Assembly (NCBI RefSeq): GCF_046105845.1
Contig: NZ_CP151004.1
DNA length: 64,000 bases
Direction: 5' to 3' (one strand)
Origin: Escherichia coli
GTDB lineage: Bacteria; Pseudomonadota; Gammaproteobacteria; Enterobacterales; Enterobacteriaceae
The stretch's first letter is position 1; each line of letters starts with the position of its first letter. Below are positions 19,300-21,177 of the stretch, piece after piece. The position numbers were made by a program, and so were the translations under genes. Under the pieces are notes generated by a model. It had not been told where the DNA came from and searched no databases. It saw only the letters and a program-made list of their open reading frames with translations.

Positions 19300-19925
19300 T
19301 CTTTAAAGAAGAGCTCGTACGAAGGTACGGGCTTTTTTTTCGTATATTGCACACACCGGGGGATGAGAAGCCCCGACCGGGGTTCGACAACTGGCGACAG
19401 CCAGTTGGACAGACCGTGAACGCAGTGAGCGGGCTGCCCGCAGGGCGAGCGAAGCGAGTCAATCCCCCCTCACCGCCATCTTTAAAGAAGAGCTCGTACG
19501 AAGGTACGGGCTTTTTTTTCGTATATTGCACACACCGGGGGATGAGAAGCCCCGACCGGGGTTCGACAACTGGCGACAGCCAGTTGGACAGACCGTGAAC
19601 GCAGTGAGCGGGCTGCCCGCAGGGCGAGCGAAGCGAGTCAATCCCCCCTCACCGCCATCTTTAAAGAAGAGCTCGTACGAAGGTACGGGCTTTTTTTTCG
19701 TATATTGCACACACCGGGGGATGAGAAGCCCCGACCGGGGTTCGACAACTGGCGACAGCCAGTTGGACAGACCGTGAACGCAGTGAGCGGGCTGCCCGCA
19801 GGGCGAGCGAAGCGAGTCAATCCCCCCCTCACCGCCATCTTTAAAGAAGAGCTCGTACGAAAGTACGGGCTTCTTTTTCGTATATTGCACACACCGGGGG
19901 GATGAGAAGCCCCGATCGGGGTACT
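19300..19925. repeat. tandem array of ~179-bp units (3 full + 1 diverged partial) immediately 3' of serX; each unit ends with a copy of the tRNA 3' terminus
   Basis: Unit tctttaaagaagagctcgtacgaaggtacgggcttttttttcg...gagtcaatcccccctcaccgcca repeats from ~19300, 19479 and 19658; a diverged partial copy from 19838. Copies 1-2 appear identical; copy 3 has one extra C. Confidence 0.9.
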
Positions 19926-19928
19926 TAG

Positions 19929-20615
19929 TTAATGCAACGGTTCACCCTTTGTCGCCGCGGCTAATGGGCGAATTTTGTCACGGGTATCCCAGACCGGAGG
20001 GATTTCATCCAATTTAGTGACAGAAGCTCGTACAAAAGGCACCCGTGCAATAGTCATAATCGTATTCAACCAACGGTCACGAATAATGCGATCTGCCCTT
20101 TCATGACTCGGATCATCCAGCTCAATAACACAGACTATTTTGTTGTTCTTCTTTGAAATCAGAACATAATCCATTGCCATTCCATTATAAATTGCAAAGA
20201 AACGCTTTCTTTCTTCTTCGCTAAACTCGGGTTGTTCTGGAAAGTTGATCAAGCGCCCCAGAGAGACCTGGCAATGGATATGACAATAATGTCCAAACCA
20301 TTTCTCCAGATTATCAAAATAGATTTTTTCACAACGCGTAATTAACCACTCTTTTCCTTCCAATAAAATACCTTCGGCAACCATTCCCTGGAACAACTCA
20401 TCTCGTTCTTGCCAACGAGAGTCACGATAGGTTTTCTGCGGTGTATAGCTCCTTGTCGACGCCTTAGCCGCAGGGGAAGTTGCAGAGGAAGGGACTGGTT
20501 GCGATCTAGTGATGATTACCGATGAGGCAACTTTTCGGAGTGTCAATTTTCTGGCAACAGCAAAACCGGCGACAAATGCAATTGTCAAACAAGTTACAAA
20601 AACCATAAAGCTCAT
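19929..20615 (-). CDS. hypothetical membrane-anchored protein with C-terminal restriction-endonuclease-fold-like (DUF2726-type) region
   Basis: 228-aa ORF; N-terminal hydrophobic helix (FMVFVTCLTIAFVAGFAVA); C-terminal DYVLISKKNNKIVCVIELDDPSHERADRIIRDRW resembles the DUF2726/NERD-like motif as I remember it. Not searched. Confidence 0.55.
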   Translation of the reverse strand: MSFMVFVTCLTIAFVAGFAVARKLTLRKVASSVIITRSQPVPSSATSPAAKASTRSYTPQKTYRDSRWQERDELFQGMVAEGILLEGKEWLITRCEKIYFDNLEKWFGHYCHIHCQVSLGRLINFPEQPEFSEEERKRFFAIYNGMAMDYVLISKKNNKIVCVIELDDPSHERADRIIRDRWLNTIMTIARVPFVRASVTKLDEIPPVWDTRDKIRPLAAATKGEPLH

Positions 20616-21127
20616 AATTAATCTTCACCTATCCATGTTGATTATATTTCATTACTAACGCTACTCGCTGTAGCGAGTTACATGCCAACAATTCAACGAA
20701 CTATATATAGTTAGTATCATGTTTTGATTATTACAACCATCCCTATTTTACCATTGCGGCTTGCCGTCCACAAAAAATAACAACACACAATATTAGCTGA
20801 AGAATTAATTAAGATTAACCTTATATTTTTAATATTATCCCTAAAAAATAAAATCAGGAGAATATATTCGGTGTTAATCAGTCAGTCAAATTATGGCCCA
20901 TTGCTGATTAAACCTCATACGCAAAATTGGCACCAGACCTCCTGTACAGGTTGAATGGCTGGAAAAAGATAGGCAAAAAACTCTCCGCGCTGGCGGCATT
21001 ACATTGGTCGGGTGCTATGACGAAAAATGCCTGGTAAAAGCATCTAAACCAGAATTCATTTCAGCTTATCAACACGCTCAAAGTCGCCCCCCAGAACGTT
21101 AACCTGAAGTGAAAGTCTTTGCTGTTA

Positions 21128-21160
21128 ATGAAATAAAACAAAGCCCGGTTCGCCCGGGCT
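21128..21160 (-). terminator. intrinsic terminator downstream of phoH
   Basis: Hairpin agcccgg-ttcgc-ccgggct followed on minus strand by T-rich tract, ~20 nt after phoH stop. Confidence 0.65.
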
Positions 21161-21177
21161 CTGTACCGATAATACAC

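Follow-up and report, generated by a model that had tools for sequence, protein, structure and literature searches.

A DUF2726 gene segment stands in place of the pgaABCD block between serX and phoH in an Escherichia coli isolate

Introduction

In E. coli K-12 the genes phoH and serX lie 11.5 kb apart, and the region reads phoH, pgaD, pgaC, pgaB, pgaA, dgcT (ycdT), IS3D (insEF4), ymdE, ycdU, serX, ghrA. In the 64 kb stretch of E. coli DNA analyzed here (“the window”), the same two genes are separated by 1,878 bp. Has this isolate lost the K-12 genes, were they replaced by something else, or were they never present at this site? A preliminary description of the stretch, which gave the K-12 gene order as it is annotated, placed serX and phoH only about 1.9 kb apart and proposed that the K-12 genes had been replaced by a 1.9 kb islet.

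Absence of the pga block from part of E. coli is already known, as two papers state in their sections on this region (PMC4951805, PMC5635171). There, the block is presented as an island between efeB/phoH and ghrA/ycdXYZ that is missing from 10-20% of phylogroup A (Goldstone et al., 2016, PMC4951805), and strains Tob1, Fec101, and B-8638 are listed as having no pga, ycdT, or IS between phoH and serX (Cimdins et al., 2017, PMC5635171). The pgaABCD-ycdT-insEF-ymdE-ycdU “region of genomic heterogeneity” treated in those sections corresponds to our locus in its position, its flanks (efeB/phoH and serX/ghrA/ycdXYZ), and its missing genes, and the published 10-20% in phylogroup A compares with 19% of the 5,426 genomes surveyed here. 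The same sections describe the absence of the block and make no mention of what occupies the site, which here is a 1.2 kb segment with a DUF2726 gene. Beyond the absence reported in them, we define the occupant, find that it hardly ever co-occurs with pgaC, and trace it to Escherichia albertii and Salmonella.

Results

A 1.2 kb segment replaces the K-12 block

The serX gene for tRNA-Ser(GGA) (19212-19299, plus strand; Rfam tRNA 53.8 bits) is the single tRNA that ARAGORN found in the window. It has a promoter-like site beside it (19149-19177) and adjoins ghrA as in K-12. ghrA (18040-18978, minus strand), the conserved flank on the serX side, encodes 312 amino acids at 98.7% identity to K-12 GhrA, with the Pfam domain 2-Hacid_dh_C. 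The other conserved flank, phoH (21178-21966, minus strand, stop codon included; Pfam PhoH, E 6.8e-77), encodes the 262-aa form, with 100% identity to PhoH as annotated (262 aa) in strain GPEC1337. Based on the tRNA and open reading frame calls, the gap between serX and the 3' end of phoH at 21178 is 19300-21177, or 1,878 bp, as the preliminary description had estimated. Proteins encoded on both flanks (the phoH/efe side and the serX/ghrA/ycdXYZ/csg side) are 98-100% identical to those of other E. coli, with which the flanks are contiguous and colinear; positions 1220-41320 are colinear with GPEC1337 at 98.3-98.8% identity. The arrangement is not an accident of assembly, because 801 complete E. 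coli genomes share the contiguous serX-DUF2726-phoH stretch.

The interval contains a tandem array, a 228-aa DUF2726 open reading frame, and a 562-bp spacer. Alignment of the whole locus around serX to K-12 (BLAST and pairwise alignment across both breakpoints) delimited the true alternative segment as 19923-21134 (unstranded; 1,212 bp, 40.6% G+C in a window of 50.3% G+C). It stands in place of K-12 positions 1086100-1096960, the 10,861 bp that carry pgaDCBA, dgcT, IS3D, ymdE, and ycdU. Both breakpoints are sharp: on the serX side homology to K-12 stops within the last unit of the array, after ...CACACACCGGG, and on the phoH side it returns at 21135, at the start of the phoH terminator, whose hairpin (21138-21164, minus strand; terminator scan) marks the boundary. 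No IS scar was seen at either junction of the segment. The K-12 proteins PgaA-D, DgcT, and YcdU gave zero tblastn matches across the 64 kb window, and the DNA of the K-12 block gave no BLAST match within positions 17000-24000, a comparison that included ymdE, a pseudogene queried as DNA and not as protein. The reported lack of pgaABCD, ycdT, ymdE, and ycdU at this locus thus stands. So does the idea that something took the place of the K-12 genes, as opposed to their mere deletion, given that 1.2 kb of the interval lacks a K-12 counterpart; the islet size of 1.9 kb does not, as it included an array that is common to K-12.

The serX-linked array is shared with K-12

This array (19281-19922, plus strand; delimited by TRF, Rfam, and K-12 alignment) has a period of 179 bp in 3.6 copies, with 98% matches over 19285-19922 according to TRF. 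The 3'-terminal 19 nt of the tRNA open each unit, and a terminator hairpin and an RtT-like core come next; one such terminator-like hairpin lies at 19849-19872. The 3'-terminal 19-mer of tRNA-Ser occurs four times in the window and four times in K-12, and in neither is there a copy near the phoH boundary. Over its length of about 640 bp the array is 97% identical to that of K-12, with near-equal copy number. Because K-12 carries the same serX-linked RtT-like array, it lies outside the variable segment.

Three units match the Rfam RtT family (RF00391) at 19344-19478, 19523-19657, and 19700-19837 with 43.1, 43.1, and 41.1 bits (E 4e-6 to 1e-5), all under the gathering score of 45 bits, whereas the orthologous units of E. 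albertii and Salmonella score 49.9 bits. The unit also aligns to the tyrT rttR repeats of K-12. The serX array resembles the 178-bp tyrT repeats of RtT RNA in several ways: both directly follow a tRNA gene on its 3' side, both repeat a unit of about 178-179 bp in tandem, both have the 19 terminal nucleotides of the adjacent tRNA in every unit, and both contain a conserved core, GGATGAGAAGC...GGTTCGAC...CCCG.AGGGCGA. They differ in that the K-12 repeats (rttR, tpr) lie downstream of tyrT-tyrV, whereas the window units are linked to serX and take their 19-mer from tRNA-Ser. Copies at serX are labeled “RtT sRNA” in the NCBI annotation of other E. coli genomes. Judging from these alignments, the serX units appear to be RtT-like elements that descend with the RtT units and fall just below the curated threshold.

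The segment encodes a predicted membrane-anchored protein of restriction-endonuclease fold

The DUF2726 gene (19929-20615, minus strand) encodes 228 amino acids, of which residues 90-205 match Pfam PF10881 (E 3.9e-18; 65.8 bits against a cut-off of 24.7). DUF2726 is a family of PD-(D/E)XK, or restriction-endonuclease, fold (Steczkiewicz et al., 2012, PMC3424549; Anantharaman et al., 2013, PMC3710099). The window protein agrees with the family in its acidic and His residues and in an alpha/beta core resembling restriction enzymes and TnsA, but its subfamily differs by an added N-terminal membrane helix and linker. The predicted layout comprises this helix (residues 3-30), a low-confidence Ser/Pro-rich linker (about 31-65), and the PD-(D/E)XK domain (about 70-222). 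An AlphaFold2 model has a mean pLDDT of 87, and >90 over the domain. The best Foldseek matches in the PDB (BstEII, BsaWI, TnsA, 3ijm, and I-Bth0305I) all have the restriction-endonuclease-like fold, with weak E-values (1e-3 to 0.6) and probabilities up to 0.97. Among 100 homologs, E96, D149, E165, H171, and D180 are invariant, and D167, D168, R176, and R179 are conserved in at least 90%. The modeled structure thus predicts a membrane-anchored protein of restriction-endonuclease fold.

The protein matched no PADLOC-DB 2.0 family at E <= 1 and no NCBIfam model. A sequence search of the PDB gave a chance-level match only, with no solved structure for this DUF2726 subfamily, and a literature search found no functional study of it. 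Homologs at 37-53% identity are located on integrative conjugative elements and in type VI secretion clusters. As a tentative guess, which we would ourselves call doubtful, the protein might be a cytoplasm-facing, membrane-tethered nuclease that acts against incoming or foreign DNA.

The DUF2726 family has been described as “surrounded by mobile elements,” but the window gene is instead a stable chromosomal gene. Close matches among plasmid records were limited to three of megabase size filed as plasmids, the gene being absent from true plasmids, and in phages only distant Vibrio DUF2726 proteins matched. The gene is under purifying selection, with a dN/dS of 0.15 relative to E. albertii (0.05-0.3 across comparisons). 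Its dS is 0.12 within E. coli, 0.41 relative to E. albertii, and saturated relative to Salmonella, a divergence that scales with phylogenetic distance.

The rest of the segment is an AT-rich spacer (20616-21134, unstranded; 36.8% G+C). Alignment shows that, apart from indels, it is conserved among E. coli, Escherichia sp. MOD1-EC7003, and E. albertii. The DUF2726 promoter probably lies within this spacer: a promoter-like TTGACT-17-TATATT lies at 20889-20861 on the minus strand, identified as a consensus match only. Translations also reveal a decayed small reading frame (20871-21104, plus strand) that is split over two frames here and split otherwise in E. albertii, where the counterpart open reading frames have 51 and 61 aa and the alignment shows frame-changing indels. 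It has no Pfam match. We considered it as a relic of pgaD, which likewise lies just ahead of the phoH terminator in that orientation and with which it seemed to share “EK.LV.A”, and rejected this: BLASTP gave no alignment at E <= 100, and DNA alignment revealed no homology ahead of the terminator.

The segment and pgaC are nearly exclusive in E. coli

Among 5,426 complete E. coli genomes, 1,051 (19%) have the DUF2726 segment and 4,382 have pgaC. One or the other is present in 5,395, both in 38, and neither in 31; the segment is therefore nearly exclusive with pgaC. Identity of the segment among E. coli ranges from 93.7 to 99%. The pga allele is also old, because pgaC alleles go down to 90-95% identity in 74 E. 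coli genomes, and pga remnants adjoin phoH in a lineage about 5% diverged from K-12. A mosaic metagenome contig combines pgaA and pgaB at 65-70% identity with a stretch, from the 3' end of pgaC through phoH, that is 85.5% identical to K-12. Strain E8 is mosaic too, a truncated pgaD being joined to the DUF2726-type spacer. We rejected this as an insertion intermediate: the junction occurs in one genome only, in an assembly with many frameshifts, and we treat it as a one-off chimera or an assembly problem.

The same gene order occurs in E. albertii and Salmonella

The type strain of E. albertii is colinear over csg-serX-repeats-DUF2726-phoH-efe at about 89% identity. In Salmonella enterica the order is putA-putP-phoH-DUF2726-(rve transposase)-RtT-serX-ghrA-ycdXYZ-csgGF. 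By contrast, pgaABCD lies away from phoH/serX in an Enterobacter, in Citrobacter werkmanii, and in one genome deposited as Salmonella enterica. These comparisons cover the E. albertii and Salmonella loci examined, E. fergusonii and the cryptic clades being outside the systematic sampling. The shared serX-RtT-DUF2726-phoH order goes against the preliminary picture of an islet that displaced the K-12 genes. The short form is probably the older one and the pga block the later arrival, because both outgroups share this order and the DUF2726 gene is under purifying selection.

Discussion

History of the site

We consider it likely that the DNA bounded by the serX RtT array and the phoH terminator varies between two alleles in E. 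coli. The one in this isolate would be the 1.2 kb segment with the putative membrane-anchored DUF2726/PD-(D/E)XK gene and its AT-rich spacer; the other, that of K-12 and about 80% of strains, would be the block of about 11 kb with pgaABCD, dgcT, ymdE, ycdU, and, optionally, an IS. The pga block would have been placed at the site within Escherichia, ousting the DUF2726 segment, and alleles and mosaics would then have spread between lineages by homologous recombination in the flanks ghrA-serX-RtT and phoH-efe. Whereas the anatomy of the locus, its breakpoints, the allele frequencies, the outgroup synteny, and the signature of selection come directly from the comparisons above, this recombination route is one that we infer. 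Several points count against this history. The pga allele is old as well, as noted above. The segment is itself AT-rich, which is compatible with an earlier foreign origin. In addition, Echeverz et al. (2017, PMC5464674) read pgaABCD as passed down mainly by vertical descent across Enterobacteriaceae and lost repeatedly, Escherichia being one such case, and their pga trees resemble the phoH tree.

We lean only slightly toward serX-RtT-DUF2726-phoH being ancestral for Escherichia and Salmonella as a whole, with the pga block arriving later and erasing a nuclease-like gene in about 80% of strains. If so, PGA-negative E. coli like this isolate would never have had pga here, contrary to the published view of vertical inheritance with repeated loss. 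The Salmonella that lack pga are instructive in this respect: like the window they retain curli, along with cellulose (PMC5464674), and their phoH-adjacent locus has the same DUF2726 gene. Their lack of pga was read as loss of an ancestral operon (PMC5464674), but the synteny observed here is easier to reconcile with a phoH-serX site that was without pga from the start in that group. As K-12 is probably derived at this locus, to speak of genes “missing in strain X relative to K-12” would be the wrong frame, and the membrane-anchored DUF2726 gene would be the real original occupant. By analogy with relatives in type VI clusters and conjugative elements, a role of its product in DNA exclusion or defense may have been given up when pga was gained.

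Alternatively, both alleles could predate E. coli and have been kept in the genus as an ancient balanced polymorphism shuffled by recombination, neither being derived within E. coli. In its favor, both alleles are deeply divergent internally (93.7-99% for the segment; 90-95% for pgaC in the 74 genomes), and the lineage about 5% diverged from K-12 also has its pga remnants by phoH. We nevertheless think it unlikely, given that the Salmonella and E. albertii loci examined have the DUF2726 state only and that pga lies elsewhere in the other genera examined, which places the DUF2726 state deeper. The balanced polymorphism and later placement of the pga block within Escherichia differ solely in the timing of pga arrival.

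Recent integration of the DUF2726 segment at serX by an integrase, displacing pga, is a much less probable origin. Other strains are known to have islands at serX (PAI-CFT073-serX and the O157 tellurite/adherence island are examples), and as in those islands variable DNA lies beside it. The low G+C of the segment, the repeated tRNA 3'-end copies, and the location of the 37-53% identical homologs described above point the same way. In contrast to serX islands, however, the segment is 1.2 kb long and has no far att-type repeat, and no integrase-like open reading frame was found in 19923-21134. The RtT array that K-12 shares accounts for the tRNA 3'-end copies, and a search for an excision product or an att-flanked copy of the 1.2 kb at other tRNA genes or mobile elements found none. 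We thus rejected an integrase-type tRNA-linked island, as there is neither an integrase nor a distal copy of the tRNA 3' end; absence of the gene from true plasmids and phages, and its unchanged location in three species, among which it diverges in line with phylogeny, also speak against recent mobility.

Simple deletion of pgaABCD through ycdU from a K-12-like ancestor, leaving residual intergenic DNA, is hardly credible: other strains (e.g., USMARC-51688 and E8) did lose parts of the block independently through IS1-mediated deletions, and pga is called “prone to attrition” in the section of PMC4951805 on this region, but for the window the breakpoint alignments refute it, with 1,212 bp that lack a K-12 counterpart, junctions free of IS scars, and an intact gene under purifying selection that has orthologs at this position in both E. 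albertii and Salmonella.

Curli and PGA status of the isolate

The preliminary description had also linked the locus to the biofilm matrix, with curli kept nearby and PGA synthesis genes missing. All seven curli genes are intact at 11573-16009, with csgC, csgA, and csgB on the minus strand and csgD, csgE, csgF, and csgG on the plus strand. In tblastn with the annotated proteins of GPEC1337 they are full length, at 99-100% identity and full coverage, and have no stops. The pgaABCD genes were found neither in the interval nor in the 64 kb window, and the isolate is without PGA synthase or DgcT at this locus. Genome-wide, PGA genes are very probably lacking too, because, of the 1,051 genomes that carry this allele, no more than 38 match pgaC at all (at least 96% do not). 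The isolate is thus predicted to be PGA-negative and can be scored as without PGA (PNAG) exopolysaccharide and DgcT, with curli kept, which bears on predicting the makeup of the biofilm matrix and the coverage of PNAG-directed vaccines or antibodies.

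A DUF2726 segment in place of the pga block

The gap between serX and phoH in the window is 1,878 bp, matching the ~1.9 kb given in the preliminary description. serX, a tRNA-Ser(GGA) gene (19212-19299, +) and the single tRNA gene in the window, lies just downstream of ghrA (18040-18978, -), whose product shares 98.7% identity with K-12 GhrA. It is followed by a tandem array (19285-19922; period 179 bp, 3.6 copies, 98% matches), an ORF for a 228-aa protein with a Pfam DUF2726 domain (19929-20615, -; 65.8 bits, cut-off 24.7) and, toward phoH, an AT-rich stretch of 562 bp (36.8% G+C over 20616-21134, versus 50.3% for the whole window). 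A terminator scan placed the phoH terminator hairpin at 21138-21164, next to phoH, whose 3' end is at 21178.

The MG1655 record gives the order phoH, pgaD, pgaC, pgaB, pgaA, dgcT (ycdT), IS3D (insE4/insF4), ymdE (pseudogene), ycdU, serX and ghrA, in agreement with the preliminary description. We compared the window with this MG1655 stretch by BLAST and aligned both junctions. Homology on the serX side extends past the tRNA and across the entire array to window position 19898 (K-12 1096961) at 97.5% identity, the last partial repeat unit being 24 nt longer in the window and reaching 19922. On the phoH side it restarts right where the phoH terminator begins to align, at 21135 (K-12 1086099). The truly differing segment is therefore 19923-21134 (1,212 bp, 40.6% G+C), and its K-12 counterpart is 1086100-1096960 (10,861 bp, 44.8% G+C). 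These two segments share no similarity, which indicates replacement, not deletion. Because the array is common to K-12, the replacing piece is 1.2 kb, shorter than the 1.9 kb islet first proposed.

Each array unit opens with the 3'-terminal 19 nt of tRNA-Ser, followed by a terminator-like hairpin and a core alignable to the tyrT/rttR repeats of K-12, the period being 178 bp in the latter and 179 bp at serX. The tRNA 3'-terminal 19-mer occurs four times in the window and four times in K-12. Under the Rfam RtT model (RF00391) the full units, three in number, score 43.1, 43.1 and 41.1 bits, slightly under the cut-off of 45, and the E. albertii and Salmonella units 49.9 bits; NCBI annotation labels the serX units of other E. 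coli genomes "RtT sRNA". The array belongs to a known repeat family, as a conserved member linked to serX, and is present with either allele.

Searches of the 64 kb window with K-12 PgaA, PgaB, PgaC, PgaD, DgcT and YcdU (tblastn) gave zero matches, and csgC, csgA, csgB, csgD, csgE, csgF and csgG (11573-16009) are each full length with no stops; the proposed absence of pga here, with curli kept, thus holds for the window. The window is colinear with the annotated E. coli chromosome GPEC1337 from mdtG through rutG. Colinearity fails before position 1220, and an IS3-family element (37-1187, +; orfA 37-360, +; orfB 465-1187, +, 32% identical to K-12 InsF) lies immediately upstream of mdtG. Over the 24 kb from 20000 to 44000, the top identity among 5,426 complete E. 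coli RefSeq genomes is only 98.1%, so this lineage is not closely represented among complete genomes.

Frequency and exchange of the two alleles

A survey of complete E. coli genomes (n = 5,426) found the 1.2 kb segment in 1,051 (~19%) and pgaC in 4,382; the contiguous serX-DUF2726-phoH stretch was found in 801. A chimeric query joining the segment and pgaC matched 5,395 of the 5,426, which leaves 38 genomes with some match to both and 31 with neither. The DUF2726 segment and pgaC are thus near-exclusive alternatives at one site. Carriers of the short (DUF2726) allele include strains labelled O111:NM, O103 and ETEC B7A, as well as many human, animal and environmental isolates. Another route of pga loss is seen in USMARC-51688, where an IS1-mediated deletion spans pgaC to ymdE.

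Segment 19923-21134 bears no mark of a mobile element: it holds no integrase, and the DUF2726 gene was found on neither real plasmids nor phages. Copies of the tRNA 3' end are part of the array common to both alleles, and neither cassette (window or K-12) has one at its phoH-side boundary. Common sharp breakpoints, a scattered distribution and mosaics suggest that the alleles were swapped by homologous recombination in the conserved flanks. Strain E8 illustrates another way of losing pga: ycdU'-IS1-pgaC'-pgaD' is fused there to a 230-bp distal piece of the DUF2726-type spacer, a junction found in E8 alone. The E8 locus (L006 12236-14195) reads serX, ycdU fragment, IS1, pgaC fragment, truncated pgaD, spacer piece and phoH, and the truncated pgaD joins the spacer at a microhomology. 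The E8 assembly also has frameshifted csgB and ghrA, which makes its sequence quality doubtful.

This polymorphism is common and already published, and is to that extent ordinary and of low interest. Goldstone et al. (PMC4951805) find the block missing in 10-20% of phylogroup A and term the region a genome island, with efeB/phoH on one side and ghrA/ycdXYZ on the other. Cimdins et al. 2017 (PMC5635171) report that between phoH and csgG, strains Tob1, Fec101 and B-8638 retain serX, ghrA and ycdXYZ and are missing pga, ycdT and the IS. In the passages of the two papers found by keyword, no replacing occupant of the site is described. This analysis adds a little to that picture: the alternative allele is defined, it and pgaC nearly exclude each other, and it is syntenic with the locus in E. 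albertii and Salmonella.

Age of the alleles

The window and the E. albertii type strain are colinear, at ~89% identity, from the csg genes across serX, the repeats, the DUF2726 gene and phoH to efeBOU. In Salmonella enterica the order is putA-putP-phoH-DUF2726, an rve-type transposase gene, a single RtT unit scoring 49.9 bits, serX, ghrA, ycdX, ycdY, ycdZ, csgG and csgF, and the DUF2726 protein is 72-83% identical to that of the window. The transposase gene sits between the DUF2726 gene and the RtT unit/serX (L008 6710-12272; L012 6506-7761), and in one of these Salmonella genomes type VI secretion-related genes (ImpA_N/VasL, DUF1240) come next. Many Salmonella serovars have a shortened 151-aa form.

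The DUF2726 gene is intact in the window, E. albertii and Salmonella enterica. Its synonymous divergence follows phylogenetic distance (dS 0.12 between E. coli alleles, 0.41 versus E. albertii, saturated versus Salmonella), with dN/dS of 0.15-0.3 within Escherichia and ~0.05 versus Salmonella. The pgaABCD genes were also located in an Enterobacter, in Citrobacter werkmanii and in one genome deposited as Salmonella enterica; their context is unrelated in each, and they adjoin phoH or serX in none of the three. The simplest reading is that serX-RtT-DUF2726-phoH is ancestral and that the pga block reached the site within Escherichia; the short allele is then probably the older state, not a newcomer.

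Counting against this reading, Echeverz et al. 2017 (PMC5464674) argue that pga is vertically inherited, with repeated losses. Less probably, both alleles are old, as an ancient polymorphism within the genus. In a divergent Escherichia genome (L026), of a lineage ~5% diverged from K-12, pga also adjoins phoH, with only pgaC'-pgaD retained (9651-12273). In a metagenome contig (L025, 5582-11941), pgaABCD adjoins phoH; its pgaA/pgaB share just 65-70% identity with K-12, against 85.5% for the stretch of pgaC 3' end, pgaD and phoH end, which reaches 98.7% with L026. The pga allele at phoH is therefore itself also old and mosaic.

The DUF2726 protein

Published classifications assign the DUF2726 family, whose function is unknown, to the PD-(D/E)XK superfamily (PMC3424549, PMC3710099), and the window protein had no match in PADLOC, NCBIfam or, by sequence, the PDB. 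An AlphaFold2 model built from a 100-sequence alignment (mean pLDDT 87) has a hydrophobic helix at residues 3-30 that leads into RKLTLRK, then a linker modelled with low confidence, and at residues 70-222 an alpha/beta domain modelled with confidence. Residues E96, D149, E165, H171 and D180 are invariant in the alignment. The top PDB fold matches (restriction enzymes BstEII and BsaWI, TnsA, the REase-like protein 3ijm, and I-Bth0305I) are consistent in fold despite weak E-values.

Homologs (37-53% identity) occur in three kinds of gene context: within a type VI secretion core cluster (tssM-tssA-DUF2726-tssF-tssG-tssJ-vgrG), immediately upstream of a vgrG-PAAR effector set (vgrG-DUF2169-PAAR), and in conjugative elements, adjacent to traU/traG and between traG and an integrase. 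A literature search found no paper linking DUF2726 homologs to these secretion or conjugative contexts. Membrane-anchored homologs lie at L016/L017 5001-5660, L015 5001-5636, and ~6001-6645 of L018 and L019. That the protein may be a cytoplasm-facing, membrane-tethered nuclease acting on incoming DNA is a sensible guess, though one we consider less likely than not.

The spacer and the phoH end

The AT-rich spacer contains a broken small reading frame (20871-21104, +) in two frames, VLISQSNYGPLLIK... then ...LRAGGITLVGCYDEKCLVKASK...; this frame neither matches a Pfam family nor resembles PgaD. Its E. albertii counterpart (L005 7441-7742, -) is broken in another way, giving ORFs of 51 and 61 aa, and frame-changing indels separate the two species. 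The frame has the look of a decayed gene of ~110 codons.

A strong Rfam match to Ysr251 (Yersinia sRNA 251; 194 bits) lies at 21183-21376 (+), antisense to the phoH 3' end; since both E. albertii and Salmonella have it too, the score may reflect mere conservation of the phoH coding sequence. The N-terminal extension of the 354-aa PhoH annotated in K-12 is not in one frame in the window (21966-22241, -), its residues 1-32 matching in another frame at 62% identity. Conservation in the window is 100% for the 262-aa PhoH form that NCBI annotates in other strains.
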